Assembly (NCBI GenBank): GCA_013286795.1
Contig: JABDFA010000011.1
Span: 6,341 to 38,340 of the forward strand
Direction of reading: 5' to 3'
DNA from: Candidatus Babelota bacterium
GTDB lineage: Bacteria; Babelota; Babeliae; Babelales; JABDEC01
DNA length: 32,000 bases
The notes below the pieces were generated by a model, which saw nothing but the letters and a program-made list of their open reading frames with translations, was not told the DNA's origin and did not search any database. Shown piece after piece: positions 733 to 29,740 of this stretch (positions are counted from its first letter, which is position 1; every line of letters starts with the position of its first letter). Made by a program: the position numbers and the translations under genes.

Positions 733-1866
733 TTACCAAGTAAAACCTACTAGTTGATCACGCAATTGTTCAACTGCTTCTCTTTGTGCTAAATCAGACA
801 TATCTGAAGCTACATTGCCTAATTGAGAAAGAGCTTCAGCATTATTTACTCTTGAGATTATATCTAATTCTCTAGGAGTTAAATCTTCTGAAAAACGTAC
901 TTGAGATAAAGCGTAAGCTTCATCAGCTCTAGAAACTATCCCGTGTTCTATGTCAGTTATACCTACAGGAGAAAAAGATGTATCATTTACAGGCTTAATT
1001 GGGTTTATTCTTCTATATAATTTAGAACCAGCTGTACCAACTTTTTCTAAAGCATTTTTAGATGAATTACTTACTACTTGTGCAGCATTTGCAAGCTTAG
1101 ATGTTGCTGCATTTTTTAAATTACTCAATGCAGAGCTTGCTCTACTAAACATAGATGGCTTTACAGGCTGTGCTACTTGCCATTCAGTATTTCTTGTTAC
1201 AGGAACAATTGAACCATCGAAAGATATAGGGTTTTCTCTTACAAATTCACCTAATTCTGACATTGATTCGCCAAGATTAACTGCTTGGTTATAGTTATTT
1301 TCAATTGCAGCTACTTTGCCAAAATTGCCCCATTGAGCTCTACGGCTGTACATACGATCGTTAATCGCTGTACCAAGACCTTTAACAAAAGCAGTAGCTT
1401 TGCTTAAATCTTGCTTGTGCAATTCAGCTAATTTCTTACCAAATGTTTTAAAATATTCACGAGTTGCAACTGATTTAAGAGATTCAGGCTTTGTAAAAGC
1501 TTGATATGCTTTAAAAGCTTCATAACCTGCTATTAAGGTAGCTGCTGTAGCTATAGCTACATTCTTTTTGGTAAAATAAGAAGGTTTTAGGCTATTTCTA
1601 AGTTGAAGAACATCAACCCCTAAATCTTTATTAAGTTGAGCAAAAATCAATTCTTGAGCACCAAGATCTGTCACGCCTTCAACTTCTTTTATCATTGCAT
1701 CAAGCTTAGCTATCAATTCTTGCTTATTCTTACCGCCATTTTTATAAGCATTATATGAAGCAATAAGCTCTTGTCTAAATTGCTCTCTTGTCATTGCCAT
1801 CATACTAACTGATGACTGCAAAGCCAAGACAAAGATAAGCGAGTTAAGTAAGTTTAGCTTTTTCAT
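733..1866 (-). CDS. Secreted hypothetical protein, paralogous N-terminal domain to the 2089..3966 product
   Basis: The ORF track gives 733..1893. I prefer the ATG at 1866 (MKKLNLL...) because GGAGG lies 5 nt upstream (cctcc at 1872-1876 on the + strand). It has a Sec-type leader MKKLNLLNSLIFVLALQSSVS and one internal hydrophobic segment. No known domain was recognised. Confidence 0.7.
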   Translation of the reverse strand: MKKLNLLNSLIFVLALQSSVSMMAMTREQFRQELIASYNAYKNGGKNKQELIAKLDAMIKEVEGVTDLGAQELIFAQLNKDLGVDVLQLRNSLKPSYFTKKNVAIATAATLIAGYEAFKAYQAFTKPESLKSVATREYFKTFGKKLAELHKQDLSKATAFVKGLGTAINDRMYSRRAQWGNFGKVAAIENNYNQAVNLGESMSELGEFVRENPISFDGSIVPVTRNTEWQVAQPVKPSMFSRASSALSNLKNAATSKLANAAQVVSNSSKNALEKVGTAGSKLYRRINPIKPVNDTSFSPVGITDIEHGIVSRADEAYALSQVRFSEDLTPRELDIISRVNNAEALSQLGNVASDMSDLAQREAVEQLRDQLVGFTW

Positions 1867-1938
1867 TAAAGCCTCCGTGTGTAAAAAATTCACTTTTACT
1901 ATTACGCACTTCCTTACTAGCCCTCACCATTCTCTTCA

Positions 1939-1966
1939 ACTATATCAAGTAAGAAATTTATGACAA
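1939..1966 (-). promoter_or_regulatory. Candidate sigma-70 promoter of the 733..1866 gene
   Basis: Minus strand: TTGTCA (1966-1961), 16-nt spacer, TATAGT (1944-1939). The same architecture and flanks (GGGG..CTTGTMATAAATTT ... TATAGTWGAAG) occur upstream of the neighbouring paralog. Confidence 0.45.
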
Positions 1967-2047
1967 GTACCCCTATCCCTATTTAAATTCCTACTGATAT
2001 TAAGTTTTTTAAAATATCTTGAATATTTCACGTTGAAATTATTGAAA

Positions 2048-2079
2048 TTTACAGGCGCCTGTCAGAAGACGCCTGTAAA
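2048..2079 (-). terminator. Hairpin terminator of the 2089..3966 gene
   Basis: 10-bp perfect stem tttacaggcg (2048-2057) / cgcctgtaaa (2070-2079) with a 12-nt loop, 10 nt past the stop codon. On the minus strand it is followed by U-rich UUUCAAUAAUUU. Confidence 0.5.
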
Positions 2080-2088
2080 TTAATTAAA

Positions 2089-3966
2089 TTATGCACCAAA
2101 AGTTGAAGATGAATTTTCATCTTGAACTTGAGTGGTTGTTTCTTGAGATTGAGCAGCTGGAGTTGCAGGTTGTTCTTGAACAACTGGAGCAGCTACACTA
2201 GCTGAACTAGTTGAACTTGAAGATACAACTTTATTGTCTTGCGCTAATGTTTCCATACCCTTTTCTACATAATCTTGTAGAGAAAATGGTAAAAAGCTAG
2301 CTATAGACATATCGTTAGTTGATTCTTCTTGCTTTTTAGCTTCTGCTTGAACTGCAACTGGTTGTTCTTGAGCAGGTGCTTGAACAACTGGAACTTCAGC
2401 AGCAACTGCCGCTGCTACTTGAACTGCAGGTTCTTCTTTGATAACTGGAGTTGCAACTGGGGCAGCTACACTTGATGAACTAGAAGAACTTGAGCTAGAA
2501 GAAACATTACCAGCAAAGAAGCTGTTAACTCTTTCTGTAGCTACTTTATCTTCTTGTTCTTTTGTATCTACTTTAACAACAACTGGTTCTTGAGTAACAG
2601 GTTTTGCAGCTTCAACAGAAGCAGGACCAAAAACCTTGTTTCTCATTCTTCTCAAGAATGACAGATTATTCGATTTATCTTGAGCTACCACTTCTTCTTG
2701 TTTTTTTGTATCTACTACTGGAGCTGCAGCTGGTTGTTCTTGAGAAGCAGGTTTTGTAGTATCAAATCCACCAGAAATTTCTATTTCTGAAGGTTTTTGA
2801 TCCTGCTTTGACAATCTTGCTTCTGTAGCACGTGCTAATTGTTCACGTTTAGCAGCAGCTTCTTGTCTATCTTTTTCTTCAGCTTCTCTTGCAACAGCTT
2901 CTTGGTGTTCTCTACGAGCTTTTTCTCTTGCTTTTTGCTCAGCATCTATTTGAGCAGCTTTTTCTCTAGCTTTTTGATCAGCAAGAGCTTTTGCTTCTTC
3001 TTTAGCTTTTTGCTCAACTGCAAATCTTGCTTTTTCTTGATTTTGACGACTTAATTCATCGTTAGCTACCCTTACAGCTTCATGTCTAGCTTTTTCTTCT
3101 TGTTCACTAGTCAATCTTACAGATAAAGCAATAGCTTCTGCTTCAGTTTTAGCATTTTCTTGTGCAACAAGTCTTGCTTGTTCAGCTTGCTCATTTCTTT
3201 CTTTTTCTTCTTGAGCTTGACGTTGAAGTTCAGCCTGGGCAGCAGCTAAGTTTACAGCTTTTGCCATTTGGGCCATAAGATCTGTATTATTTAGATCTTC
3301 AGCCTTTTCTTTGCCTTCTTTATCTTCTTTGTCTTCACCATCTTGCTTTTTGTCAGCATCAGGTTTAACATCTTGTAAAGATGCAGCATAAGCTTTAGAT
3401 TCAGCTAAAGCAACTAAAACATCAAAATCATCTTGATTTGCTTGAACTTTATCTTCTTGAGCTTGTTGAGCTTGCGCAACAGCTTGATCTTTAGGCAATG
3501 CATTCAATTCTTCTATGAAAGAATCTTTTTGAGCCCTAAAAACACCAAAGTTTATGCCTCGTTTAGCAAATATAGAATCAACAGCCGGGTTTAATCTACC
3601 TGTTTCATCTATAAAAGGACCTACAAGGTTCAAAACTTCATCCATTACTGGAACTATTTCAAAGATAAACTGTTCTCTAGACATATTATCAACGTTCGTG
3701 CTTATATTCACAAATATATCTAACAAGTCAGAAATTTTATCACTTGGAGCTTCAGCTACTGGGACTACCGGAGCTGCAACAGCTCTTACAGGAGCAACAG
3801 GCTTTGCAGCTGGTTTTGCAGCTGGAGCCGGAGCTACGATTCTGTGAGGTGCCTTCTTTTTCATTCCACAAGCGCCGCCCTTACAAGGTCTAGGTCTATA
3901 CATTGACATAACCAATGAAGATTGTGCCAATGCAAGAACCATTAATTTAACTATTAGCTTTTTCAT
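2089..3966 (-). CDS. Secreted low-complexity / coiled-coil protein (Ala-Pro-Val-rich, K/E/A/Q-rich, poly-Ser)
   Basis: 625-aa ORF with a GGGAGG RBS just upstream of the ATG at 3966 and leader MKKLIVKLMVLALAQSSLVMS. It contains an AP-rich spacer, a long KEAQ-rich helical region, Ser runs, and repeated Sn-VAAPV...QEQP modules. No enzymatic motif was seen. Confidence 0.7.
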   Translation of the reverse strand: MKKLIVKLMVLALAQSSLVMSMYRPRPCKGGACGMKKKAPHRIVAPAPAAKPAAKPVAPVRAVAAPVVPVAEAPSDKISDLLDIFVNISTNVDNMSREQFIFEIVPVMDEVLNLVGPFIDETGRLNPAVDSIFAKRGINFGVFRAQKDSFIEELNALPKDQAVAQAQQAQEDKVQANQDDFDVLVALAESKAYAASLQDVKPDADKKQDGEDKEDKEGKEKAEDLNNTDLMAQMAKAVNLAAAQAELQRQAQEEKERNEQAEQARLVAQENAKTEAEAIALSVRLTSEQEEKARHEAVRVANDELSRQNQEKARFAVEQKAKEEAKALADQKAREKAAQIDAEQKAREKARREHQEAVAREAEEKDRQEAAAKREQLARATEARLSKQDQKPSEIEISGGFDTTKPASQEQPAAAPVVDTKKQEEVVAQDKSNNLSFLRRMRNKVFGPASVEAAKPVTQEPVVVKVDTKEQEDKVATERVNSFFAGNVSSSSSSSSSSSVAAPVATPVIKEEPAVQVAAAVAAEVPVVQAPAQEQPVAVQAEAKKQEESTNDMSIASFLPFSLQDYVEKGMETLAQDNKVVSSSSTSSASVAAPVVQEQPATPAAQSQETTTQVQDENSSSTFGA

Positions 3967-4035
3967 TTAAAGCCTCCCTATAATTTAGTACATTCAAATG
4001 GGATTTTCCCTATGAAAATCCACCATTTAACTTCT

Positions 4036-4063
4036 ACTATACCATATAAAAAATTTATTACAA
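4036..4063 (-). promoter_or_regulatory. Candidate sigma-70 promoter of the 2089..3966 gene
   Basis: Minus strand: TTGTAA (4063-4058), 16-nt spacer, TATAGT (4041-4036). It is paralogous to the promoter candidate at 1939-1966. Confidence 0.4.
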
Positions 4064-4096
4064 GCCCCTATTTTCTACCTGAAAAATAAACTTTAT

Positions 4097-6199
4097 TTAA
4101 TCGACAAAACCTAGGCTTTTAAAATATGCTTCTTGATTAGGTTTTCTAGATAAGAAATCAACTAAAATTTGGTTAGGATCCTTGCTGCCCCCTAGACCAA
4201 TTACCTGATTTATATATTTTTGGCCAATTTCCGGGTTCAAAAGACCTTTTTTGTTTATTTCACTGAAAAGATCCTTTGCAAAAACATTTGACCACAAATA
4301 ACCATAATAAGATGGCCCATAATCAGTCAAATGACCAAATGAAGCCTGCATGTGATTGTTATCGGACCAAGATACATGATCTATAATTTCTTTATGAAGA
4401 TCTTTGGCAATCCTTTGAGTGTCTTTATAGGCCCCATTAGCAAAAAAGGCCAAAGATAAACGGGAAAAAAAGATTTGTCTTAAAACAGAGTCACCTGAAT
4501 CAAATTGTTCGGTTTTAATTATAGTATCTATAATATTTTCAGGTAAAGGCTGACCAGTTAAATAATGCTTACTAACTTTCTGTAATATTTCTTTATCTTT
4601 TAACCAATTTTCTAACATTTGTGATGGCATTTCGACAAAATCCCTTTTAACTGTTGTTCCAGAAAATGAACTAAGCTCTGTAGAACCAAGAATTGCATGT
4701 AAGGCATGACCAAATTCATGAAAAAATGTTTCTACATCATTAAACTTCAAAAGAGCAGGACAATTTTGTGTTGCCTTAGGAAAGTTGGCCATAACAACTG
4801 ATACAGATGGACAAATATATTTCTTTGAATCTTTATAATAGAATGTTGCAGGAACAATTGTCATATGAGCCGCGTGACTAAATTTATTTGGCCTAGGGTA
4901 TAGATCTAACAATAAATAGCCTAATAAAACATCACAATTATTATAAACTTCTATTAATTTAACATCTTCATGCCAAAATTTGCCTCTTAAACTAACTTCT
5001 TTAAACTTAATACTTAAGAATTGCTGATAAATATCAAGTAATTGAGCTATTGTATTTTCCATAGGAAAATATTTGGCTACTTCTTGCGCATCTAAATTCA
5101 AATATTTTTTCTTATAATATTCTTTTAAAAATCTAGAATCCCATGGTTTTAGTTTACCTGATTCAAGTTTTACAGATTCAGGTAGATCAGCCATAAACTT
5201 TTTTACTTCTTTTTTAGCTTTATTTGTAGCTTTTTCCAGAAGAGAAGATAAAAAGGTATAAACATTTTCTGGCGTTTTTGCCATTTGGCTATCGATAACC
5301 ATACTATTATAGTTCTTAAAGCCTATCAATTTTGCAAGCTCATCTCGTTTTTTTATAATCTTTTCTAGAACTTCAATATTTTCAGGATAAGCTCTATTAT
5401 GAAAAGCTATATACATATTCTTTCTTGTGCTTTCAACCTTGCAATTATCTATTACTGCAAAATATGTTGGATAATCACATCCTAAGACAAACTTATCACC
5501 CTCTTTTTGTAAAGCATTAATAAAATCTTCCTGAAGACCCGCTAATTCTTGCTTAGTTACCAAAATCTTACATTTGCTTTGAGCTATATTTGCTTCAAAC
5601 GCTAAAGACAATGCTGCCAACTCTTTTATTAACTCTTTAACTTGTTTTAATTTATCTTCAGGCAAATCTAGACCACTTCTTTTGAAGTCATCCATAGTTT
5701 CTTTAATAAAATATAATTTAATCTCATCTAAATCTTCACCAGCTCCATTTTTTTGTGCATACGCTTTAAATGCTTTATAAAGCTCAATATTATTTGAAAC
5801 ATGATCAACCATAAAATTACTTAGTTTTAATATAGTCTCATGCGCTTTTTCTCTTAAATTTTGATCTGGACTTAAAACTTCTAATGCATAAATTGCAGAA
5901 TATACAGGTGTATAATAACTTCCTATTTTATCTAAAGCCAAAGCTGTATTTTCAAAAGTACGCTTATTATCAGGAATATTTATAATCTTTTTAACTTCAG
6001 CTTCAATAATTTTCATGCACTCATTTGCATAATCTTCTATTTGATTTGGAGATTTAGGAAAAAGCTTAACTACATCTGATAATGTTGATATTTTACACAT
6101 ATGATATCCCTTAATTTTGTTTATATATACCCAAACCAACCCTACTAAAAGTAAGATAAAAATTATAAATTTTTTGTTCACTTTATACCTAAAATTCAA
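4097..6199 (-). CDS. M3 family zinc metallopeptidase (oligopeptidase A / thimet oligopeptidase / Dcp-like)
   Basis: HEXXH motif FHEFGHALH lies in the C-terminal third, and the length is typical of M3A. The ORF start at 6199 is a TTG without an RBS and adds a hydrophobic N-terminal segment. The ATG at 6100 (MCKISTL..., AAGGGA 6 nt upstream) is a plausible alternative start. Confidence 0.88.
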   Translation of the reverse strand: MNFRYKVNKKFIIFILLLVGLVWVYINKIKGYHMCKISTLSDVVKLFPKSPNQIEDYANECMKIIEAEVKKIINIPDNKRTFENTALALDKIGSYYTPVYSAIYALEVLSPDQNLREKAHETILKLSNFMVDHVSNNIELYKAFKAYAQKNGAGEDLDEIKLYFIKETMDDFKRSGLDLPEDKLKQVKELIKELAALSLAFEANIAQSKCKILVTKQELAGLQEDFINALQKEGDKFVLGCDYPTYFAVIDNCKVESTRKNMYIAFHNRAYPENIEVLEKIIKKRDELAKLIGFKNYNSMVIDSQMAKTPENVYTFLSSLLEKATNKAKKEVKKFMADLPESVKLESGKLKPWDSRFLKEYYKKKYLNLDAQEVAKYFPMENTIAQLLDIYQQFLSIKFKEVSLRGKFWHEDVKLIEVYNNCDVLLGYLLLDLYPRPNKFSHAAHMTIVPATFYYKDSKKYICPSVSVVMANFPKATQNCPALLKFNDVETFFHEFGHALHAILGSTELSSFSGTTVKRDFVEMPSQMLENWLKDKEILQKVSKHYLTGQPLPENIIDTIIKTEQFDSGDSVLRQIFFSRLSLAFFANGAYKDTQRIAKDLHKEIIDHVSWSDNNHMQASFGHLTDYGPSYYGYLWSNVFAKDLFSEINKKGLLNPEIGQKYINQVIGLGGSKDPNQILVDFLSRKPNQEAYFKSLGFVD

Positions 6200-6280
6200 G
6201 AATTAACGTAATAATTACTTGAATTCAGCATAATCCAGGTTAAATTATTATCAATAAATTTTATAGTTTATACTAAAATA

Positions 6281-6444
6281 TGCTCGTATGGTTCGACGGG
6301 CTCACCACGAGCGCGAGGAAAATTCTCTGGATCCGCTCGTCCCGATGCTTCGACAAGCTCAGCATGACTGGAGTTTTTATTACTATCCCCGGCCATCCTG
6401 AATGTAGCGCGTAGCGCGAAATCGAAGGACGAGGGATACGAGCA
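6281..6444. repeat. GC-rich modular palindromic repeat, locus R1
   Basis: Bounded by 9-bp inverted termini tgctcgtat (6281-6289) / atacgagca (6436-6444). It contains module E tcaccacgagcgcgagg (6302-6318) and module D gatgcttcgacaagctcagcatga (6344-6367, identical 24/24 to 14793-14816). It also contains module C ggccatcctga...cgaaatcgaaggac (6391-6430). It is much more GC-rich than its surroundings. Confidence 0.85.
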
Positions 6445-6465
6445 CTTATTAATATAATCTTCTAG

Positions 6466-7134
6466 CTAAAGAATCACACAACATCTTTTTTTTATTTTAT
6501 GATTTTCACGATTTATAGTAAAAGTTCGAACCGGTAAACTCTCTACATATTCTATTTTTTCTAACATGTCAGTTGATAATGGCACGTTACTTCTTATAGT
6601 TCTTATCATATCTTTCATCAAGTCACCTACTTCATTAAATGCAGCTATTCTTTCTACATCATATTTATTTTTAATTTTTTTATTAATATCTGCACCGGAT
6701 TCTAATAATAATCTAACTACAGCAAATCTATGTTGATTGACAGCTAATGCAAGAGGAAAACATCCTTTGAAAAATTTTTCATCCCATTCTGCATTAACAT
6801 CTACACCTAGAGAAATAGCTGTTTTAACCAGATCCAAATTGTTATCGAGAATTCCCTGTTCAAGAATTTTAAGTAATGCCTCTTTTTCTTCATTAGATTG
6901 GCCGATATAAGCATAAACTATTTCAGATAAATCCTGAGCAGGGCAAACATTATTTTCATCAAAAAATCCTTGAATCTTGTTTTTTGCAGAAAGCTTCTTG
7001 AATGATTCGACAACATCTTCTTGTGAATTAAGTTCGCTTTCTATTTTTTCGTCACTAAAATCATAATAATCTAGGTTCATACAATTAGTTTTGGAAAATA
7101 TCACAAGTAATGCGAATATTTTAATTATTTTCAT
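6466..7134 (-). CDS. Secreted ankyrin-repeat protein with C-terminal polybasic CaaX box (CVIL)
   Basis: Leader MKIIKIFALLVIFSKTNC. Ankyrin consensus appears in GCFPLALAVNQHRFAVVRLLLESGADINKK and the preceding repeat. The C-terminus is HKIKKRCCVIL-stop (CVIL at 6469-6480). The start overlaps the uvrB stop by 14 nt. Confidence 0.8.
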   Translation of the reverse strand: MKIIKIFALLVIFSKTNCMNLDYYDFSDEKIESELNSQEDVVESFKKLSAKNKIQGFFDENNVCPAQDLSEIVYAYIGQSNEEKEALLKILEQGILDNNLDLVKTAISLGVDVNAEWDEKFFKGCFPLALAVNQHRFAVVRLLLESGADINKKIKNKYDVERIAAFNEVGDLMKDMIRTIRSNVPLSTDMLEKIEYVESLPVRTFTINRENHKIKKRCCVIL

Positions 7135-9173: not shown

Positions 9174-9911
9174 TTATCTTATTGGTTTAATACAATTTCT
9201 AAAACATTTACATATAAAATGGGAACACTTTTTTTCTCTTTTTGGAGTGTTTTCTTGATTAAAACTTTTTTGTTTTTCACGTTTTAATTCACTGATGTTT
9301 TGATCCAATTGAAGTTTAAAATCTCTTAAATTTTTGGTAAATTCTCCCACATAACTATCCACTATGTCGCTGAATTGTTCATCTGTTAATCTAGAATTAT
9401 TCTCAGAATCAATAGATTCTAAAATATGTCTAATTCTGCCTGGCATCGAATTAGAAGCAAAAGTGAAAAGGTTATCCTTTTTAAATTGTTCTATATCAGC
9501 TACTGCTAGATCCTTCTCTAGGTTTCTTAAAAAGTTACTTGCTTCAAATTCTAGTCGAATCTTAACAGATCCTACTAGATTTCTTAAAATAGGTTGCTCT
9601 TCTTGTGTCTTAGAATCTTCTGAAGGCTCGAATGTTTCATCTCCTGAGACATATACAAAATCATCTTCCTCTAATTGCATTGAGAAGATATTGAAGCTTG
9701 TAACAAAACAAAAAAATAGAACATATCTCTTGCAAAACCTAAAAATTTGTTTTATTCCGTTCGCCCTGAGTATCGCACGTAGTGCGATGTATCGAAGGGT
9801 GAATAAAAAATTATGTTCATGGTTCGATACGTTTGCTTCGCAAACACTCACCACGAACGGGCTCTCAAATAGAGTTATATTAGGTTTTGAAAGAAGCCTA
9901 ATTTGTCTCAT
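9174..9911 (-). CDS. Hypothetical protein, probably secreted; 5' end remodelled by repeat R2 and true start uncertain
   Basis: The ORF is open from the ATG at 9911, but the first ~50 codons are repeat-derived (PFVVSVCEANVSNHE ... LRANG). A leader-like KRYVLFFCFVTSFNIFS|MQLEEDD follows with no ATG of its own. An in-frame ATA (IKQIFRF...) sits where a start would be expected. The C-terminus carries a Cys-basic cluster, KKCSHFICKCFRNCIKPIR. Confidence 0.5.
   Translation of the reverse strand: MRQIRLLSKPNITLFESPFVVSVCEANVSNHEHNFLFTLRYIALRAILRANGIKQIFRFCKRYVLFFCFVTSFNIFSMQLEEDDFVYVSGDETFEPSEDSKTQEEQPILRNLVGSVKIRLEFEASNFLRNLEKDLAVADIEQFKKDNLFTFASNSMPGRIRHILESIDSENNSRLTDEQFSDIVDSYVGEFTKNLRDFKLQLDQNISELKREKQKSFNQENTPKREKKCSHFICKCFRNCIKPIR
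9757..9861. repeat. GC-rich modular palindromic repeat, locus R2 (module B + module A, inverted relative to R5)
   Basis: Module B: ccgttcgccctgagtatcgcacgtagtgcgatgtatcgaagggtga (9757-9802). A 12-nt AT spacer follows. Module A: gttcatggttcgatacgtttgcttcgcaaacactcaccacgaacgg (9815-9860). Module A is near-identical to 17641-17688. Confidence 0.85.
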
Positions 9912-9918: not shown

Positions 9919-10428
9919 TCAACAGTATGGAAAACAACATTTTGATTTTTCTACAACATCACTAATTAATTTTTGGACACATTCTCTAAAAAATTTCTCT
10001 TGATCCTGAAGTAAGTCTTCAATTGTTGCTCCCGATAATATTTTTTCATTATAGATCAAAGCAAGCCTGCTTAAATTCAATTTTTTAATAGAATTAATTT
10101 TGTTGGCTATTTTTCTTTTAGTCCAGGGCATAACACGTAAGTTTTCAGATTCTGTTGCAATTATATGATCAAAACTCTCAGTTAAATGTTTAATAAAGTT
10201 ATCACGCGCAGCACTTCTAGCCTCTTCTCTTATAGCTTTAACACTAATACTATTTCTTGGAGGTAGTGGTGGCTTTTGTTGTAATACTACTACAGGATGA
10301 CCTTCAGTTTGATATCCAGGTTGCTGATCAGGAGCACTAGGTCTTGAACTTAAATTATCTCGATAATATTGATCAAATGCACACATCTTGCATACAAATA
10401 ACAGGGGTAAAACTAAGAGCTTTTTCAT
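9919..10428 (-). CDS. Small secreted hypothetical protein (Pro-rich N-terminal region, C-terminal Cys cluster)
   Basis: AGGAG RBS upstream of the ATG at 10428 and leader MKKLLVLPLLFVCKMCA. It contains KPPLPPR (10255-10275) and ends SKCCFPYC. The helical region (KKLNLSRLA...ATIEDLLQDQEKFFRE) resembles the 10503..11126 product (RELNLSQSFA...GTLDALIFEAERKFRD). Confidence 0.6.
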   Translation of the reverse strand: MKKLLVLPLLFVCKMCAFDQYYRDNLSSRPSAPDQQPGYQTEGHPVVVLQQKPPLPPRNSISVKAIREEARSAARDNFIKHLTESFDHIIATESENLRVMPWTKRKIANKINSIKKLNLSRLALIYNEKILSGATIEDLLQDQEKFFRECVQKLISDVVEKSKCCFPYC

Positions 10429-10502
10429 TATAACTCCTAAAAAAATTTAACTACACTCAAGCAATCTAGCAAAAAAAATATATTTCTTACCAGCTTTTTT
10501 AC

Positions 10503-17080: not shown

Positions 17081-17629
17081 ATGAACGCAAAATTAAACTT
17101 ATTTCTAGTAACATTTTCTCTATCTACGTTTCTTGCAAATAATTCTATGGATGAAAGACCTAAAAAAAGAATTTGTTTAGAAGAAGAATATAGAAAGAGA
17201 AAATCAACATATAATTGGAGGCATGATGTACGTATTAAAGACTTCGAATTCATAGAAGAAGCGTTACGAAACGGAGCAGATCCCAATTTTGAAATAGATT
17301 TTTTTGAAGGTAGCAATCTTTCCTATACAGGTTTACATTATGTAATTAAATGCTATAAATATCTTAGAGAAAAGGAAAAATCCCAACAAGCCTTAAATAT
17401 TATTAGATTATTACTTAAATCTGGTGCTGATATAAATTTAGAAGACACTCTAAAAAAAAGAACTTTTTTAGAACTAGCAAAAGAATCTGATGATGAGGAT
17501 ATACTTAAAATTATTAAAGAATGGCAAGAAGAAACAAACAAAAAAATATTAGAAGAAACTAGTCCCTACATGCCACCTGTATTGGGAAATATAGTTAGTG
17601 AATACGTTACAGGTAAATTAGAACAATAA
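17081..17629 (+). CDS. Secreted ankyrin-repeat protein, array member 4 (short mosaic copy)
   Basis: The 5' end (leader + MDERPKKRICLE) matches member 3. The 3' end (KEWQEETNKKILEETSPYMPPVLGNIVSEYVTG) matches member 2 almost nucleotide for nucleotide. The central ankyrin repeats are reduced. Confidence 0.85.
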   Translation: MNAKLNLFLVTFSLSTFLANNSMDERPKKRICLEEEYRKRKSTYNWRHDVRIKDFEFIEEALRNGADPNFEIDFFEGSNLSYTGLHYVIKCYKYLREKEKSQQALNIIRLLLKSGADINLEDTLKKRTFLELAKESDDEDILKIIKEWQEETNKKILEETSPYMPPVLGNIVSEYVTGKLEQ

Positions 17630-20482: not shown

Positions 20483-20881
20483 TTAAACTACAAATTCTTC
20501 TGTCTCAACAGATTTTGAATTTCTAAAATTTTTCAAAAGATTTTCAAACTTTTGATTTATATTTCCTGTAACTTCATGAATTTTAGCTATTAATTCTTCT
20601 GAAGACAAAGAATCAATTTCATTTTTAATTTCTTTTAATTTATTTTTTATTTCATCTTTTAACCTTAATAAGTTATTTTTGGTTGATAGCACCAGGTTAG
20701 ATTTTTCAATATCTTCAGTAATACCTTCTATTTTGTCTCCAACCCATTTCACTGAATTTTTAAGTTCTTGTTTAAGTTTCTCATAACCCCAATCTTCATA
20801 ATCACCGTTGCAATAAGAGTTGTTACTTGAAAATAGAACTAAAAACATAGAACCTATTAATAATTTTTGTAAACTTTTCAT
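20483..20881 (-). CDS. Small secreted coiled-coil hypothetical protein
   Basis: The ORF track starts at 20911. I prefer the ATG at 20881 (MKSLQKLLIGSMFLVLFSS) with GGAGG 6 nt upstream. The product is K/E/N-rich and helical. Confidence 0.6.
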   Translation of the reverse strand: MKSLQKLLIGSMFLVLFSSNNSYCNGDYEDWGYEKLKQELKNSVKWVGDKIEGITEDIEKSNLVLSTKNNLLRLKDEIKNKLKEIKNEIDSLSSEELIAKIHEVTGNINQKFENLLKNFRNSKSVETEEFVV

Positions 20882-20920: not shown

Positions 20921-21424
20921 CTACAACACCGGTAGAAAGATACATGGTGTACCAGATGCAACACAGCCTACAGCCACAAGAGTAAGACCTACACCTGCCG
21001 CCGTACCCTTTATAAATACCTCAGCAGGCAATCCCTGCACATGAGTAGGATAATCTTTCCCATTTTTTTCAACTGTAACTGTTATATCTCCACAAATACC
21101 ACCCCAGGTTTCTTTCTTAAATCCATTGTCCATTACCTTTTCACCTTTGGAGTTGTAAACCTTCACTCGTCCAAAACAGGCACCTTTACATAACACGGTA
21201 TTATTTGCAATATAAGGCTGACCAGTTCTTGATCCTTTTGGAATTTTAGCTCTCCAATCACAACTCAAAGGAGATTTATAACCTCCAACACCCAATGTTG
21301 ATACTAATTCAACTTCAATATCTTCACCAGTATTATTATTTACGGTTATTTTATAACAATATACTTGACTGACAAATGAACTTATTACTGAAAATAATAT
21401 TAATTTTCTCTTTAAATTACCCAT
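20921..21424 (-). CDS. Small Cys-rich secreted protein with C-terminal hydrophobic tail
   Basis: The ORF track starts at 21448. I prefer the ATG at 21424 (MGNLKRKLILFSVISSFVSQVYC) with GGAGG about 5 nt upstream. The body looks beta-rich with several Cys. The C-terminus is AAGVGLTLVAVGCVASGTPCIFLPVL-stop. Confidence 0.6.
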   Translation of the reverse strand: MGNLKRKLILFSVISSFVSQVYCYKITVNNNTGEDIEVELVSTLGVGGYKSPLSCDWRAKIPKGSRTGQPYIANNTVLCKGACFGRVKVYNSKGEKVMDNGFKKETWGGICGDITVTVEKNGKDYPTHVQGLPAEVFIKGTAAGVGLTLVAVGCVASGTPCIFLPVL

Positions 21425-23509: not shown

Positions 23510-24355
23510 TCACAAATTATCGTATCTTTGCCGAGACTTAATCAATTGTGTAATTTTCCTTTGTTTTTCAGAATTAACTTTGAAATCATTAAAGTTCGTT
23601 TGTACATTATAAACATATAAAATTTCATCAACAAACTTTATATGCCCACGAGCCATTTCAAGCATAGGAAGCATTTCTGCCACATCACCAGCTACATCAA
23701 TAAAATCACCATCTAACATTAAATCAGATTTTTTGATTTTTTTAAATAGCCATGCATAATATGTTCTTAATGCGCTGGTGTACCATTGATCCATTGACCT
23801 GAAATCATAATCTTGTTCAAGAAATTTACACTGTCCCTCAACACCAGATGGCCAACGAATAAATTGACCATAAGTTAACCAAACATCCTCAGTAGAATAA
23901 GTAGAATTTATTATCTGAAAAACATAATCTTGAGCTAACCAATCATCTCCATCTAAAATGATAACTATTTCTTCATCATTTGCTAAATGGGAACCTAAAT
24001 ATCTGTTTGCAGTAGCCCCACTTCGTTTTTCATTTCTTATCAAGGTTAGTTTAGATTTATAGCCTAAACTATCCACATAACCCTGAACATAAAAAGATGT
24101 ATCATCCTGTGAAGCATCATCAATATATATAATTCTATAATTTGAATATTTTTGATTAAAAATAGAATCTAAATTTTTTTTATACCAGAGAGCATTATTA
24201 TAAGATGGTATTACTACAACTATTGGTTTTTCATAAAGATTATTAATTATTTTATTCTTTCTAAAAAAGCTTCTCAACTTTGCTATATTTAGTTTTATTG
24301 CAAATTTCATTCCAAACCATTTTTCTAACTTTTTTATCATAACTTTTAAAATCAT
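23510..24355 (-). CDS. Glycosyltransferase family 2 (tandem paralog, downstream copy)
   Basis: GT-A signature VVVIPSYNNALWYKKNLDSIFNQKYSNYRIIYIDDASQDDT and DXD motif LDGDDWL. The N-terminal MILKVMIKKLEKWF is homologous to MVEKFVIKLIYKFF of the upstream copy, which supports the ATG at 24355. Confidence 0.85.
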   Translation of the reverse strand: MILKVMIKKLEKWFGMKFAIKLNIAKLRSFFRKNKIINNLYEKPIVVVIPSYNNALWYKKNLDSIFNQKYSNYRIIYIDDASQDDTSFYVQGYVDSLGYKSKLTLIRNEKRSGATANRYLGSHLANDEEIVIILDGDDWLAQDYVFQIINSTYSTEDVWLTYGQFIRWPSGVEGQCKFLEQDYDFRSMDQWYTSALRTYYAWLFKKIKKSDLMLDGDFIDVAGDVAEMLPMLEMARGHIKFVDEILYVYNVQTNFNDFKVNSEKQRKITQLIKSRQRYDNL

Positions 24356-25226
24356 TTATAGGAGAATCTATATTTCTTAATAACACAATTTCATCAATTG
24401 AAGTAACTTTATTTTGAGCCATCTCAAGTATAGGGTAAAAAATTGCTGCATCACCACATAAAGGAAAAAATTCCCCTAATGCTGTTGAACTTATACTTTC
24501 TTTATTTATCTTTTTAAAAAGAGCTGCATAATATGAGCGTAGTCCAGAAAAAACCCACGGGTATAATCTTATTTTATTTAATCTTAAAATAAACCTAGGT
24601 ACCGGCTGAAAAAATTTCTCAATTTCAAGTCTTTCAGCCAAATCTTCTGGGTAATTCTTATAATTTCCATAAACTACCCATGCGCCTGTTATTTGATAAT
24701 AATTATTAAATAAACTCAAAACCTGAGAACCATTTAAATAATCATCCCCATCAAGCTCTAAAATTATTCTATTATCATCTAGGCTATTAATCACAGAATA
24801 TAGATTTTCGACCTTTTTTTTACGAGTATCATTTAAGATATATTTTACTTTCTTTTGAGGATCATAATCTTCAAGAAATTTTTGCACAATCTCTGAAGTC
24901 CCATCCTTTGAACAATCATCTATATAGATTACATCAAAATTTGAATAATTTTGACCCAAGACAGATTCTAAATTTTTTTTACAGTATTTTATATTGTTAT
25001 AAGAAGTGATAACGACGGTTATGGGTAATTCTTTTAAATTATTATTTGGAAACCCGTTCGTGGTGCCTGCCCGTCGAAGCTCTAAGAGCGAAGTCGGGAG
25101 TGTTCTACGAAGCTTTCTTGTCCGGCGTAGCTTTAGCGAAGACGGAGCGAAGTAGAACGTATCGAACCATGAACTCTTGAACTTAAAAAACTTATAAATT
25201 AACTTGATTACAAATTTCTCTACCAT
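24261..25226 (-). CDS. Glycosyltransferase family 2 (tandem paralog, upstream copy, with repeat R6 translated in frame)
   Basis: TVVITSYNNIKYCKKNLESVLGQNYSNFDVIYIDDCSKDGT and LDGDDYL. There is no ATG between the repeat and the catalytic domain. The conserved N-terminal peptide lies upstream of the repeat in the same frame. Confidence 0.8.
   Translation of the reverse strand: MVEKFVIKLIYKFFKFKSSWFDTFYFAPSSLKLRRTRKLRRTLPTSLLELRRAGTTNGFPNNNLKELPITVVITSYNNIKYCKKNLESVLGQNYSNFDVIYIDDCSKDGTSEIVQKFLEDYDPQKKVKYILNDTRKKKVENLYSVINSLDDNRIILELDGDDYLNGSQVLSLFNNYYQITGAWVVYGNYKNYPEDLAERLEIEKFFQPVPRFILRLNKIRLYPWVFSGLRSYYAALFKKINKESISSTALGEFFPLCGDAAIFYPILEMAQNKVTSIDEIVLLRNIDSPINDFKSYDKKVRKMVWNEICNKTKYSKVEKLF
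25053..25174. repeat. GC-rich palindromic repeat, locus R6 (module A carrying two nested GC-rich insertions)
   Basis: It shares cccgttcgtggtg ... gtgttctacgaagc ... aagtagaacgtatcgaaccatgaac with R5 module A. Two extra hairpin-like inserts are present at about 25066-25099 and about 25114-25149. The second contains gcgaagacgga, the inverse of tccgtcttcgc in R5 module B. Confidence 0.85.
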
Positions 25227-25340: not shown

Positions 25341-26594
25341 TTATTCTTCTGGAGCATACCAATCTTCAGGATCAACTATTCTTATTGGCCGTTCCCCGCC
25401 TTCTATTACAATACCACTTGAAGGTTCTGAAGCTTGTTGTCCTTCTGCTTCTTGTTTTTTTTCTTCTTGTCTTATTCTAGGTTGCGCTTCAGGAGAATGT
25501 TGTATTACAGGCAATTCTAAAGTTAAAGACCAGGGAGTGGAGCCTACTTCAGGTTTAGTGTCTTTTTGGACAGCTGCCCCTGTTAATCTTGCTTGTTCAA
25601 TTCGTTCATTTCTTTCTTTCTCTTCTTGAGCTGAAATTAAACGTTGTGCTTCTCGAATTTTTTCTTGCTTTTTTTGGTGAGCTAATTCTATAGCTTCAAT
25701 TTCAGAACCGAAGTTTTCAGCTTCTTCTCTATTTATTTTTGCTTCTTCAGATCTTACTACAGGTTGAGATTTTGCTGGTTCTGGTTTTATAGATTGTGGT
25801 TTTTGAGAAACTGTTGAAGCTTGTGCTTTTTGAGATTTTGCGCAAGCTGCTTCTATAGCCATTATCTGAGCAAGAAAATCTTCTTCATCTTGTTGTTGTT
25901 TAGGTGCAACATACTTTGGCTCTTCTAGCTTTATTCCAGATTTTTCCTTTTCAAATCGCTCAGAATTCAAGATTTGTTTTATTTGTGGATCTTTTGCATA
26001 GGAATAAGCATCTCGTCGATCTTTATTTACAAATTTAGGATCAGCACCATTAGCCAATAATAATTTAACTGTTTCAATCTTGCCATCTATAGATGCTCTC
26101 ATCAAAGGGGTAAGGTTGTTACTATAAGAGCCATTGACATTTGCTCCTTTTTCTAAAAGCAATTTAGCCAACTCAAAACTTGTATTGGCCGCCAGATAAA
26201 GGGGAGTATCACCATAAGCATTCGAAGCGTTTACATCAGCCCCACTTTCTATGAGTAACTTAGCTATTGGGAAATTTCCACGAAACGCTGCTGTCATCAA
26301 AGGTGTCCATTTAGCACCAGCACTAGTATCAGGAGCATTTACATTTGCTCCATTTTTAATAGCATTTTGAACTTCAATTATGTTACCATGATTTATTGCT
26401 TTTATAAGTTTCTTATTTTCTTCTTTCTCTTTATTTTCTTTTTCTTCTGATTTTTTAGTCTCTTTAGCTTTTTGACAAGCGACTTCAATTTTAGCAATCT
26501 CAGCGCTTAAATCTTCTTGCATTCCCATACCAGAAATTACTGATATATTAGCAAAAGCAACAAAAAATAAGCTAATTAATTTAAGGTTTTTCAT
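25341..26594 (-). CDS. Secreted ankyrin-repeat protein with repeated helical motif and K/E/Q-rich C-terminal region
   Basis: Leader MKNLKLISLFFVAFANISVISG. There are four good ankyrin repeats (TPLMTAAFRGNFPIAKLLIESGADVNA; TPLYLAA...LLLEKGANVNG; TPLMRASIDGKIETVKLLLANGADP). A GGAAGG RBS lies upstream. Confidence 0.88.
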   Translation of the reverse strand: MKNLKLISLFFVAFANISVISGMGMQEDLSAEIAKIEVACQKAKETKKSEEKENKEKEENKKLIKAINHGNIIEVQNAIKNGANVNAPDTSAGAKWTPLMTAAFRGNFPIAKLLIESGADVNASNAYGDTPLYLAANTSFELAKLLLEKGANVNGSYSNNLTPLMRASIDGKIETVKLLLANGADPKFVNKDRRDAYSYAKDPQIKQILNSERFEKEKSGIKLEEPKYVAPKQQQDEEDFLAQIMAIEAACAKSQKAQASTVSQKPQSIKPEPAKSQPVVRSEEAKINREEAENFGSEIEAIELAHQKKQEKIREAQRLISAQEEKERNERIEQARLTGAAVQKDTKPEVGSTPWSLTLELPVIQHSPEAQPRIRQEEKKQEAEGQQASEPSSGIVIEGGERPIRIVDPEDWYAPEE

Positions 26595-26802: not shown

Positions 26803-27598
26803 CTACAAATACTCAAAAATCAGATTTAATAGTTCTTTTGGTAAGGGAGTATTTTTATAAGCAATTTCATACTTATTCTTATTAAAAGAAATACAGTCTT
26901 CCCTTATAGCTTCACGAACCTTACTATTTTTAGCAAAGCTAAAACAATTTAGCCCCATTAGAGTCTTTCAATGCACTATCGGCTCCGGATTTTAATAAGA
27001 ATAAAGCTAGCTTCACATTGCCCATTTTGGCTGCATACATAAGAGCAGTTCTTCCTTGATAAGTTTGCCTATTAACATCGGCATCAAAGCTAACCAATAA
27101 CTTTGCAGCTTTTAAACTTAAAGAATTAAATTTTGAATCACAGACTTCTATCAAAGGTGTAAATCTATGTTTATTTGCTAAATTAGCATCTGCTCTGTTA
27201 AAGAGTAATAATTGTATCATTCTTAAATTAAGAGGAGTTCTGCAAACATTTAATAATGGGGTATTTCCAGCATCATTCTGATTATCTACATTTATACCTT
27301 TTATAGAAAGCAAAAATTCAATAATTTTTTCATCTTCAAAAACAATATTATTTGTTAAAATATTTAAAAGAGAATTTCTATATTTAAATAAACAATTAAC
27401 ATCTGCTCCCTGTTCAATTAACTCTTTAATATTTTCCAAATTTTTTATATGCAGCGTCTGCATTCTTAATAATTCATTTAACGAAGGTATATTTGATTCA
27501 GGTTCCTCTCTTTTTCTTTTTCGATTCATACCATCTATATATAAAAATTGGACACTTAAAATCAAAAAGCAAATTATTAATTTTTTACAATATTTCAC
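26803..27598 (-). pseudogene. Secreted ankyrin-repeat protein interrupted by a 1-nt homopolymer frameshift (called ORF 26939..27598)
   Basis: GTG start at 27598 with AAGGGTGG upstream, leader MKYCKKLIICFLILSVQFLYIDG, and ankyrin repeats. The ORF stops at ...DSNGAKLF-TAG. Removing one base from the A4 run at 26941-26944 continues the frame as SFAKNSKVREAIREDCISFNKNKYEIAYKNTPLPKELLNLIFEYL-TAG (stop 26803-26805). That restores the family C-terminal tail. Confidence 0.6.
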
Positions 27599-27715: not shown

Positions 27716-27744
27716 TTGACAATCTGAAAATAACAATATATAAT
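27716..27744 (+). promoter_or_regulatory. Consensus sigma-70 promoter of the UIM/Josephin-like gene
   Basis: TTGACA (27716-27721), exactly 17 nt, TATAAT (27739-27744). A GGGAGG RBS at 27768-27773 lies 6 nt before the ATG at 27780. Confidence 0.6.
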
Positions 27745-27779
27745 ATAATTATGTAAGTGTAAAATTAGGGAGGATCCAA

Positions 27780-28865
27780 ATGAAAATTTCAAAAATAATA
27801 TTCTTATATCCCATTATTGTAGTATCAATTTTTGCCAAAACGATATTATCTATGGACAAAGATTTAGCACAGGCTCTAAAACAGAGTTTGGCAAGTAAAC
27901 AGGCTGAAGATGCAGAAAGAAAAGCAGAACGTGATTTGGCTGATGCCATAAAAAATAGTCTAAAAAGTTCCGACGATGACGACAAAAAAGTAAAAGAAGA
28001 AAATTTTCACATCGTACCTGTATTACCACAAAAAGGAGCGGATTGTGGTTATCATGCAATAAAAAATGGAAATATACTATATCAATGGTTAGCTGCAGAT
28101 GGAATATTAAAACAAGAAACAAAAAAAGAAATTGAACGAAGACTTAATGTAGAAGATGAAGAAAATTTCCCTTTAGAAAAATGGAGATCAATAGTTGCTC
28201 AAGTTAGAAAGGACAAACCTACTTTTGGCACAAAAGCAGGAGCAAACTTATTTGATATAGAAATAGCTAATATAATAAAAAATGAATTAAAATTATCTCC
28301 AGAAACATATTCTGTAATTGCAAACATAAATGAAATCGCAGAAAATAATAATAAAATTTTAGAACCTTTAGCTAAAACAGTAGAAAAAATAAGACTCAAC
28401 CCAAATGCCACACATATATTCATTTTGGGAAATATGAAAGAAACCAATGTAGCCTGTGGTCACTGGATAGCTGTTGTTCTAAAAAGAGATAATCGAAACT
28501 ATGAATATTACATTATGGATTCACTTGGTAGTAAAAGCAAAACCATAAACCCAATGGTTAAAAGCTTAGACACTGTATTAAAAAAAGCTAGATTAGATAT
28601 TGCCAAAATTCCAACTCTTGCAATCATAATAAATGAAGCTATAGACGCGATCCAAGAATTAGACATAAAAACTTGTCTGGCAAAACTTAAACAAGTAATA
28701 GAATCTAAATTAAATCCATTTAGTGATAAAACATTTGCCCAAGAAAACACAAGTCGTGTCAAACAAATATTAAATGGTATCATAGAATTTGGCTCAGAAG
28801 AAGATAAAAAAGAAGCACAAGAGCTTTTGAATAAACTTGCTCTAAAATCTAATATAAAAACTTAA
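27780..28865 (+). CDS. Secreted protein with two UIMs and a Josephin-like papain-fold cysteine protease domain (candidate deubiquitinase)
   Basis: Leader MKISKIIFLYPIIVVSIFAKTILS. UIM cores are DKDLAQALKQSLAS (27855-27899) and ERDLADAIKNSLKSSDDDD (27924-27971). QKGADCGYH carries Cys89 (28044-28046). GHWIAVVLKR carries His228 (28461-28463). YYIMDS carries Asp247 (28518-28520). Confidence 0.8.
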   Translation: MKISKIIFLYPIIVVSIFAKTILSMDKDLAQALKQSLASKQAEDAERKAERDLADAIKNSLKSSDDDDKKVKEENFHIVPVLPQKGADCGYHAIKNGNILYQWLAADGILKQETKKEIERRLNVEDEENFPLEKWRSIVAQVRKDKPTFGTKAGANLFDIEIANIIKNELKLSPETYSVIANINEIAENNNKILEPLAKTVEKIRLNPNATHIFILGNMKETNVACGHWIAVVLKRDNRNYEYYIMDSLGSKSKTINPMVKSLDTVLKKARLDIAKIPTLAIIINEAIDAIQELDIKTCLAKLKQVIESKLNPFSDKTFAQENTSRVKQILNGIIEFGSEEDKKEAQELLNKLALKSNIKT

Positions 28866-28890
28866 TTGATCAAAAAAACTAAAAACTACT

Positions 28891-29047
28891 TTATACAAAA
28901 AATTCTTTTTCATCTTCATTTATACTTTCTTGGGCTAATTTGATTAATTTCTTAATTTTTTTTGTTTTAGCCAACTCTAAAAGCGACTTTTTACCTCTCA
29001 AATTAAGATATGGAAAAAAAATTGATATGCAATATAAATTAGTCCTA
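28891..29047 (-). pseudogene. Degenerate duplicate of the 3' end of the 29045..29740 gene (non-coding remnant)
   Basis: A Met-less minus-strand frame reads ISIFFPYLNLRGKKSLLELAKTKKIKKLIKLAQES...FFV-stop. The gene's own C-terminus reads TSIFLPFLNAKCKQEILEIVQQ. At the DNA level, 29002-29039 matches 29138-29175 at 32/38 positions, offset 136 bp. Confidence 0.35.
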
Positions 29048-29740
29048 ATGCATATCTAAACTACTTTTAATTAATCTCACAAATTTTCTCATATTTCTCT
29101 GTTGAACAATCTCCAAAATTTCTTGCTTACACTTAGCATTAAGAAATGGAAGAAAAATTGAAGTGAAATAAAAATCTTTTCTATTGCCTTCAAAATATGG
29201 ATTCTTATACACATTTTCAACTTGAAGACTCATACCTTCAGATATGATAAACTTAAGCCATTTATTATCATACCTTAATCTTATTATATCTTCTTTTGTA
29301 GGATTCTTATTATCATTCACATATTTTTGATACGCATTAACAACAATTCTCCATAAATAATCACTATCTTCTTTCACATGTCCATGTTGCTTATCAGTCA
29401 CAAATAAAAATCCAGCAACATAAGAAAATAGTTCGATTTTATTTTTATCTTCACCAATATCTCTCCAAAATCTAAAAAAACTCATTTTATCAGGCAGCAA
29501 AGCTCCATTATCAATTAAGATATCAACTAATTCTCTGTTATTCCTAGAAATAGCTGTCCATAAAGCCTCGTTTTTATATTCATTGGCTATTTTTTCTTCT
29601 TGCAAGATATTAGTAACCTTATTTTTATGACCATTAAGAGTTGCTGTAACCAAATATTTTCCCGGATTATTTAAAACCGGACTCATGGATTTTAAGTTAA
29701 AAGAAATAAATAATAAGATAAAAATAAGTTTAAATTTCAC
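29045..29740 (-). CDS. Secreted hypothetical protein with one or two weak ankyrin-like repeats
   Basis: GTG start at 29740 with an AGGAAA RBS and leader MKFKLIFILLFISFNLKS. An ankyrin-like segment ALWTAISRNNRELVDILIDNGALLP is present. Confidence 0.6.
   Translation of the reverse strand: MKFKLIFILLFISFNLKSMSPVLNNPGKYLVTATLNGHKNKVTNILQEEKIANEYKNEALWTAISRNNRELVDILIDNGALLPDKMSFFRFWRDIGEDKNKIELFSYVAGFLFVTDKQHGHVKEDSDYLWRIVVNAYQKYVNDNKNPTKEDIIRLRYDNKWLKFIISEGMSLQVENVYKNPYFEGNRKDFYFTSIFLPFLNAKCKQEILEIVQQRNMRKFVRLIKSSLDMH

Follow-up and report, generated by a model that had tools for sequence, protein, structure and literature searches.

Methionine at the leader junction of effector-like proteins in a Dependentiae genome as a possible retained start codon

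Genes and leader junctions of the window

This study concerns a methionine (Met) that directly follows the N-terminal hydrophobic leader in many proteins encoded by a 32,000-nucleotide stretch of contig JABDFA010000011.1 (hereafter the window), where it occupies the +1 position of the predicted type I signal peptidase site. The G+C content of the window is 28–38%. Its housekeeping genes (uvrB, rpsA, ndk, efp, nusB, glyA, a NUDIX gene, glycosyltransferase genes, and an ABC transporter gene) alternate with many small genes encoding leader-bearing proteins. The source-named homologs of its M3 oligopeptidase are all labeled Candidatus Babeliales or Dependentiae (50–56% identity), and the gene order NDK–S1–glycosyltransferase–small leader proteins–UvrB–M3 is the same in the window and in the Babeliales metagenome-assembled genome (MAG) JARLHJ010000018 (L166 in our numbering). 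Based on these labels and the shared gene order, the window is assigned to a Dependentiae (TM6)/Babeliales genome. Logan run SRR8433578 holds the same sequence (L001 and L082; 100% identical), and the source contig measures 43.5 kb.

In the original prediction, 16 products of the window were listed as leader-bearing, and in 13 of them a Met was placed at +1 after a small −1 residue. All 13 junctions are present at the genes named, and the coordinates of the leaders and Met codons as well as the N-termini were verified. The −1 residue is Ser, Cys, Ala, or Gly in 12 of the 13; gene 14918 has Pro at this position and gene 9174 is doubtful, so that the claim holds with these two reservations. Pfam assigns eight of the 13 proteins to the ankyrin-repeat (Ank) class and one to a cysteine-protease-like class (weak Ulp1 match), and four have no match. 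The 13 genes, the M3 oligopeptidase, and the three listed exceptions are as follows; slashes mark the predicted cleavage site, and RBS denotes a ribosome-binding site.

733–1866, minus strand: gene with leader MKKLNLLNSLIFVLALQSSVS (1804–1866) and junction ATG at 1801–1803, SVS/MMAM; GGAGG 5 nt before the ATG at 1866.
2089–3966, minus strand: paralog of 733, leader MKKLIVKLMVLALAQSSLVMS and junction 3901–3966, ATG at 3901–3903, VMS/MYRP; GGAGG RBS.
4097–6199, minus strand: M3 oligopeptidase with an N-terminal hydrophobic extension (6098–6199 including the ATG) and a TTG start without a Shine–Dalgarno (SD) motif; ATG at 6098–6100 after AAGGGA.
6466–7134, minus strand: Ank gene, leader MKIIKIFALLVIFSKTNC and junction 7078–7134, ATG at 7078–7080, TNC/MNLD.
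9174–9911, minus strand: gene with a 77-residue N-terminal region (9678–9911 including the ATG) ending in hydrophobic YVLFFCFVTSFNIFS, followed by ATG at 9678–9680, FS/MQLE; doubtful.
10503–11126, minus strand: gene with leader MGKILINLFFLVSSVNC and junction 11073–11126, ATG at 11073–11075, VNC/MDKN; AAGGGAGA RBS.
14918–15616, plus strand: Ank gene, leader and junction 14918–14986, ATG at 14984–14986, NKP/MGIE; Pro at −1.
15613–16332, plus strand: Ank gene, leader MNKLILYVIITLLSISLSNYA and junction 15613–15678, ATG at 15676–15678, YA/MIQE.
16338–17066, plus strand: Ank gene, leader and junction 16338–16403, ATG at 16401–16403, NNS/MDERPKKR.
17081–17629, plus strand: Ank-like gene, leader and junction 17081–17149, ATG at 17147–17149, NNS/MDERPKKR.
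25341–26594, minus strand: Ank gene, leader and junction 26526–26594, ATG at 26526–26528, ISG/MGMQ; GGGAAGGA RBS.
26939–27598, minus strand: Ank gene with GTG start, leader and junction 27527–27598, ATG at 27527–27529, IDG/MNRKRKRE; AAGGGTGG RBS.
27780–28865, plus strand: cysteine-protease-like gene, leader and junction 27780–27854, ATG at 27852–27854, ILS/MDKD; GGGAGG RBS.
29045–29740, minus strand: Ank-like gene with GTG start, leader and junction 29684–29740, ATG at 29684–29686, LKS/MSPV.
9919–10428, minus strand: exception, leader MKKLLVLPLLFVCKMC followed by AFDQ, no Met at +1.
20483–20881, minus strand: exception, leader-bearing, ...SSNNSYC/NGDYED, no Met at +1.
20921–21424, minus strand: exception, leader-bearing, ...SQVYC/YKITV, no Met at +1.

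In gene 9174, the hydrophobic stretch lies 62 residues into the open reading frame (ORF), and no ATG, GTG, or TTG is found near the hydrophobic segment. Because of the Pro at −1, the Met of 14918 is not at a permissible +1, and cleavage of this protein probably takes place a few residues upstream. Three groups of paralogs (16338/17081, 14918/15613, and 733/2089) reduce the 13 junctions to about nine independent ones. The M3 peptidase is a 17th case that was absent from the earlier list; its hydrophobic N-terminal segment is followed by ...GYH/MCKIS.

Features of the leaders

Twelve of the 13 junction genes encode a short positive n-region (MK or MN starts) and an uncharged core of 9–15 residues at the extreme N-terminus; gene 9174 differs. 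The −3 residue is of an allowed type in 10–11 of the 13 and is Asn in three Ank paralogs, and an aromatic residue at −2 is frequent in the examples from other Dependentiae. The leaders are 15–27 residues long (median 21). In both the n-region/core and the c-region, these leaders match the predicted Sec type, processed by type I signal peptidase, and the position of cleavage directly before the Met is predicted from the −3/−1 rule alone.

A lipoprotein (type II) signal peptide was considered and rejected: there is no lipobox (L-[AS]-[GA]-C), and the residues before the Cys are Asn, Tyr, His, Phe, and the like (TNC, VNC, LYC, and IFC). In the MscS-like orthologs, the Cys column aligns with Ala at −1 (GYA/D and LHA/D versus HLC/N and THC/G), which indicates that the xC/M junctions do not contain a lipobox Cys. 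At the predicted −1 position in Dependentiae loci (window 7081–7083 and 11076–11078; L163, L169, and L170), Cys occurs unusually often, as in xC/M, SYC/N, VYC/Y, and HLC/N.

Enrichment of Met at the junction

Leaders were detected by a heuristic that scores the hydrophobic core without regard to the residues after it (+1-blind), and a crude cleavage-site predictor, which is rough, was used solely as a +1-blind check. Under the loose rule, a Met had to lie within 10 residues after the core; under the strict rule, the −1 residue had in addition to be small and the −3 residue of an allowed type. The controls were 364 leaders from 156 loci of unrelated bacteria and archaea, obtained as by-products of the UvrB and M3 scans. 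The Dependentiae loci were the contigs of M3 orthologs, plus L002 and L083. The M3-alignment scan of metagenome contigs gave one Dependentiae locus (L083) among the matches listed, and the UvrB scan of genome contigs gave one relative (L002) among the matches listed, plus 79 unrelated bacteria or archaea. No Dependentiae were found among the matches of the viral contig scan.

The positional recurrence of Met had been called very unlikely by chance, and the controls bear this out. The loose rule was satisfied by 13/16 flagged window ORFs and by 59/364 (16%) of the control leaders (binomial p = 1.8e-8). Downstream 10-residue windows of the same control proteins contain a Met in 15–17%. The heuristic set is not identical to the earlier list: genes 4097 and 30404 are added, 9919 is counted as Met-positive, and 2089 and 9174 are missed. 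When paralogs are collapsed, about 12 independent families remain, nine of them positive (p ~1e-5). The strict rule was satisfied by 10/16 in the window versus 15/364 in the controls (Fisher 1.4e-9), and most of the control matches are Rossmann or transmembrane N-termini, not true signal peptides.

The same tendency was observed in the other Dependentiae loci, where 28/74 leaders satisfied the loose rule and 16/74 the strict rule (Fisher versus controls, 8e-5 and 4e-6, respectively). With the +1-blind predictor, Met was the commonest +1 residue in Dependentiae loci (15–40% versus 2% in controls; 10/67 versus 6/300). Examples of the junctions are AWS/MQPG, NYA/MDKG, VWS/MDNT, LLC/MEQERPKKR, ISC/MQQV, ITC/MFRR, LHC/MKRK, and TNA/MNHD. 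The pattern is uneven: it is pronounced in L163, L169, and L170, and L167 and L171 lack it. The enrichment of Met at the junction is real and phylum-wide. Among the 26 strict Met-positive cases, the +2 residue is Asp, Glu, Asn, or Gln in 17.

Start-site signals

The RBS motifs reported earlier for the window are correct: GGAGG lies 5–6 nt before the ATGs at 1866, 3966, and 27780, AGGAG precedes that at 10428, and AAGGGAGA precedes that at 11126. SD-like motifs were also found upstream of the starts at 26594, 27598 (GTG), and 29740 (GTG). In the window, a strong SD is present at 7/13 leader starts and at 0/13 junction ATGs. The comparison was extended to the 26 strict cases from seven Dependentiae loci, with the mean folding energy calculated over −30 to +30.

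Leader start: SD-like motif in 18/26, mean folding energy −4.9.
Junction ATG: SD-like motif in 1/26, mean folding energy −7.65.
Other internal ATGs: SD-like motif in 8/106 (8%), mean folding energy −7.55.

The upstream starts, which had been stated to be real, have both an SD and a relaxed mRNA structure, and the junction ATGs have neither. The latter look like ordinary internal codons, which disfavors dual initiation and leads us to reject an annotation artifact as the source of the pattern. The leaders are translated.

At 30% G+C, 16–19% of 22-codon stretches of random sequence are free of stop codons, and the open frames are leader-like in 8–13%, versus 3% at 50% G+C. A random 22-codon stretch at the composition of the window is both open and leader-like ~1–2.5% of the time. 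Chance open frames were therefore rejected as the source of the leaders, as well below one such extension is expected per 30 genes versus the 13 seen.

Protein classes with and without the junction Met

Of the strict Met-positive cases, six are Ank proteins, two are RING proteins, and 16 have no Pfam match; a further two, a phosphodiesterase whose start was mis-chosen and a hydrolase, are likely false positives. Among the Met-negative cases are MscS-like proteins (5), M3 peptidases (3, with the Met further downstream), phosphodiesterases, an amidase, EamA, VKOR, a beta-helix protein, EndoU, and similar proteins. The difference in class between the two sets is significant (Fisher 6e-4), and the Met state agrees within homologous families. 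The junction Met is tied to effector-like proteins (Ank, RING, and ORFans), not to classical envelope proteins, and this link with protein class makes a general preference of the signal peptidase unlikely. It was confined to families whose members elsewhere are leaderless or cytosolic, and ancestrally exported proteins lacked it.

Judging from their homologs, the Met-positive proteins are young or fast-evolving. The gene 733 product has one homolog among 5.8 billion proteins, and the 15613 family is confined to the lineage, being found only in the window genome and a single strain nearly identical to it. Almost all members of the 27780 family are leader-bearing, the Met is at +1 in ~13 of ~75 members, which are scattered, and the N-terminal linkers are nonhomologous; the scatter fits a recurrent, transient state. 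The 733 and 2089 proteins were compared with those of L173, a close relative whose M3 C-terminus is 82% identical. The proteins are ~36% identical overall, yet the L173 ortholog of 733 keeps 20/21 leader residues and the MMA, with most of the codon changes in the leader being synonymous, and the ortholog of 2089 keeps 18/21 leader residues and retains SLVMS/MYRP. The combination of a conserved signal sequence and a hypervariable mature region (window 733–3966 versus L173:798–3888) suggests diversifying selection on the mature parts.

Several sequence features of the effector-like proteins were noted in addition. The Ank protein of 6466–7134 ends in ...KKRCCVIL (6466–6480), a CaaX-type box (CVIL). 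Boxes of the CVIL type are prenylated by host geranylgeranyl transferases, as in Legionella AnkB-like effectors, and the presence of this box argues for action in the host cytosol. The gene 9919 product ends in ...CCFPYC. The four tandem Ank paralogs (14918–17629) share the C-terminal motif ...(K)ILEETSPY(L/M)xPVLGNIVSEYVTG; a likeness to an F-box/PRANC tail, seen by eye, was dismissed because no Pfam match was obtained even at E = 10. The mature N-terminus MDERPKKR (window 16401–16424 and 17147–17170) is similar to MEQERPKKR of the distant locus L163 (18688–20157 and 20349–21767), and both resemble a basic nuclear-localization signal. MNRKRKRE (26939) and MKRKFKC (L170) are likewise similar basic mature N-termini. 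The host nucleus may be the target of several Met-positive effectors.

Leaderless relatives of leader-bearing enzymes

M3 oligopeptidase is cytosolic in other bacteria. We found 118 Dependentiae orthologs of the window M3 peptidase at ~50% identity, of which 103 are leader-bearing. The leaders are often lipobox-like (LGFC and LSYC; ..[FY]C) and are followed by a short Lys/Glu-rich linker. In 79/103 of the leader-bearing orthologs, a Met is present within five aligned columns, against a background of 2.1% per residue. The M3 genes of L169 and L170 truly lack a leader, with in-frame stops 4 and 19 codons upstream, an SD at the appropriate place, and a start that coincides with the Met column. 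The junction ATG of the window M3 gene also corresponds to this phylum-wide Met column, and one public gene call starts there (667 aa). An SD precedes the M3 junction ATG in the window (AAGGGA) and in L083 (AGGAG). As the upstream TTG in the window has no SD and the internal ATG has AAGGGA, the window copy may be effectively leaderless. Across Dependentiae, this normally cytosolic peptidase seems to be membrane-anchored or exported.

The purT gene of the window genome (L082:1750–2991) lies ~0.6–1.8 kb past the right end of the window, and its product, an enzyme of purine synthesis that is normally cytosolic, matches Escherichia coli PurT with a phmmer E value of ~1e-145. The protein has a leader-like extension of 19–22 residues, MKIFQVIFLVLSLVSCFSQEAS, and homology begins at residue 23, which is aligned with E. 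coli residue 3–4. Within the ORF, a perfect AGGAGG is located 5 nt before the ATA codon of residue 23, at which the homology starts. The two elements have the look of a fossil SD and a former ATG start that mutated to ATA.

A second NDK paralog gives a similar picture, with a Met after the leader in L166 and an Ile at the aligned position in L171. This leader-bearing protein (L166:1597–2124 and L171:179–706), which is encoded beside the normal leaderless ndk, may be an exported nucleoside diphosphate kinase. The aligned enzyme families show Dependentiae apparently adding leaders in front of existing starts, after which the old ATG either persists or decays to Ile or Leu codons.

Proposed origin of the junction Met

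Here, we propose, with evenly divided confidence, that the junction Met is the retained start codon of once leaderless proteins to which a 5′ extension added a minimal Sec leader. The ancestors would have been leaderless Ank and RING proteins of eukaryote-like type, ORFans specific to the lineage, and a small number of cytosolic enzymes. An upstream extension of their reading frame would then have brought in a new start codon, together with a separate RBS, and given a Sec-type signal peptide. T-rich upstream DNA encodes hydrophobic peptides by default and would make this route easy. In the stop-rich, AT-rich upstream DNA, only the shortest workable extension would survive, within the observed range of leader lengths, and the cleavage region would thus come to lie flush with the old Met, now residue +1. 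The 13 effectors of the window may share this history, and their Met would have been kept through their young age and a constraint on the cleavage junction. A fossil start codon joined to a grafted leader cassette was among the four hypotheses that the original prediction put forward without preferring one. The fossil start is the best supported of these ideas, through M3, PurT, NDK, and the confinement to certain protein classes, and the cassette fails for want of any 5′ module common to unrelated window genes.

Several observations weigh against a retained start codon. Leaderless versions starting at the Met were to be looked for among orthologs; they were found for M3 (L169 and L170) and, approximately, for PurT, but none of the 13 window effectors gave a leaderless homolog that begins at the Met, and the direct evidence comes from the enzyme families alone. 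Even in M3, the non-Met residues at the column are mostly Leu or Ile, so that part of its conservation may be structural. There is no fossil SD before the effector junction ATGs (1/26). The Met sits at an allowed −3/−1 site in 26/41 Met-positive leaders versus 15/59 controls, and the fossil model accounts for the exact +1 placement solely via the minimal-extension argument. The Met is invariant while positions −3 to −1, +2, and +3 vary, in 4/4 tandem Ank paralogs and in 5/5 members of the 733/2089/L173 family; such conservation within families exceeds that expected of a neutral relic under AT mutation pressure.

Several of these observations are also the strength of the alternative that the Met at +1 is selected in host-directed effectors as an N-terminal mark (small residue/M-[D/E/N/Q]) exposed by signal peptidase, which we regard as unlikely. 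The mark could serve onward export from the periplasm to the host or packaging, or provide a stable, host-like, degradation-resistant N-terminus in the eukaryotic cytosol. In fast-evolving families the Met stays invariant as every flanking position varies, and its exact placement at +1 exceeds chance. Consistent with this view, the leader and junction are ~90–95% conserved between close relatives whose mature parts are ~36% identical, no residue is predicted at +1 in Dependentiae loci more often than Met, the +2 residue is predominantly Asp, Glu, Asn, or Gln, and the pattern is limited to effector-like proteins. However, the scattered minority of Met-positive members in the almost uniformly leader-bearing 27780 family, the lack of the pattern in L167 and L171, the occurrence of RING effectors both with and without the Met, and its absence from classical exported proteins weigh against a selected mark. 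Other small residues would be equally stabilizing under the eukaryotic N-degron rules, and the early mature regions of Sec substrates are generally acidic, so that the bias at +2 is not specific.

Dual initiation, in which the junction ATG still serves as a second in-frame start and yields exported and leaderless cytoplasmic forms, is improbable. The M3 family is where it finds footing: the Met is conserved phylum-wide, leaderless and leader-bearing states alternate among relatives, and the junction ATGs of the window and L083 are preceded by an SD. Moreover, many housekeeping genes of the window start without an SD, so that its absence is not decisive. For the effector genes, the hypothesis is disfavored by the near absence of SD-like motifs at the junction ATGs (1/26 versus 8% at other internal ATGs) and by their folding energy, which is close to that of internal ATGs and not of real starts. 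Nor does an Ank or RING host effector have an obvious role in cytoplasmic form.

The movement or homogenization of leader modules (promoter, RBS, and leader up to −1) by recombination or gene conversion, with joining at the ATG of the recipient, has a rather slim chance of being the explanation. A paralog pair in L083 is ~95% identical in DNA from −55 through the leader, with the similarity ending right after the ATG, and genes 733 and 2089 share the stretch from RBS to start. Besides the lack of a shared module in unrelated window genes, every pair with a shared leader is also homologous in the mature part, that is, the pairs are paralogs. Leader and Met are kept across genomes (the window and L173), which intragenomic conversion cannot explain. 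Finally, an annotation artifact, in which translation truly begins at the junction Met and the leader is merely a stretch open by chance and untranslated, is hardly credible: AT-rich open frames are indeed often leader-like, one public call starts the window M3 gene at the internal ATG, and 9174 has no credible upstream start, but the initiation signals are at the upstream starts, chance extensions fall far short of the number seen, and the leaders are conserved as amino acids, with synonymous changes, between genomes.

Comparison with known systems

In the conotoxin superfamilies, a conserved signal sequence is combined with a hypervariable mature region. The leaders described here resemble them in being far more conserved than the mature parts (733/2089 versus L173 and the L083 pair). 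Conotoxin leaders, in contrast, are eukaryotic endoplasmic reticulum signal peptides with no junction Met, and no start-codon history is implied for them.

In Enterobacterales, signal peptides are gained and lost through N-terminal regions being acquired or eliminated (Hoenigschmid et al. 2018; PMC5952966). There, too, orthologs differ in the signal peptide, and in one of the routes described a whole N-terminal region is gained or lost, as in M3, PurT, and NDK. The Enterobacterales work, however, reports no proteome-scale residual Met at +1, and losses dominate in endosymbionts, whereas the intracellular parasites of the Dependentiae show large-scale gain on host-directed proteins. In Chromulinavorax destructans, a member of the same phylum, signal peptides are predicted on 44% of the coding sequences and on 78% of the Ank proteins (PMC6561590). 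The window is likewise rich in Ank proteins and leaders; the Chromulinavorax paper is silent on the cleavage-site residue, Met at +1, and the origin of the leaders. In eukaryotic dual targeting (e.g., mitochondrial and cytosolic isoforms), two in-frame AUGs flank the targeting peptide (PMC11974929). The anatomy is the same, consisting of a start, a targeting peptide, a second in-frame Met, and a functional protein, but the second AUG of eukaryotes is demonstrably used, whereas the junction ATGs of Dependentiae effectors are without a start-site signature. No description of a Met at +1, whether for Dependentiae or for other organisms, turned up in our literature search; the process of signal-peptide gain is known, and the Met-at-+1 pattern itself seems to be unreported.

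Dependentiae are widespread, almost uncultured intracellular parasites of protists, and an unusually large share of their proteome is exported via Sec. If the junction Met is a retained start codon, it would show directly that short 5′ extensions into AT-rich DNA can give rise to a host-directed secretome, and the Met would be a cheap marker in MAGs that separates recently recruited effector candidates (Ank, RING, and ORFans) from ancestral envelope proteins. If it is instead under selection as a motif, it would represent a new signal for sorting or host stability and offer a simple rule by which the effector repertoire of an entire uncultured phylum could be read from sequence. On the annotation side, such genes are sometimes started at the internal Met by gene callers, as for the M3 peptidase of the window, which hides the leader.

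Other observations on the locus

The segment between the glycosyltransferase gene and uvrB (window 9919–11126) is a variable slot, with equivalents in L165, L166, L170, and L171. Its small leader-bearing proteins differ between Dependentiae: two loci (L165 and L170) have RING proteins there and the others have ORFans, and L165 also has a transposase. The closest relative of the window among the genome-contig matches listed is L002 (CAZQDJ010000005.1), with the same local gene order and a UvrB 71% identical. Its record is titled 'uncultured Pseudomonadota bacterium'; the gene content fits Dependentiae, and the label looks wrong. In L163, a protein of >2700 residues with DUF637/Ntox35 toxin-type domains (1–6527) adjoins the M3 locus. 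Two neighboring family-2-like glycosyltransferase paralogs of the window (23510–24355 and 24261–25226) have longest ORFs that overlap by 95 nt (24261–24355). The start of the downstream paralog probably lies further in, and the upstream paralog has an odd basic repeat near its N-terminus (LKLRRTRKLRRTLPTSLLELRR).

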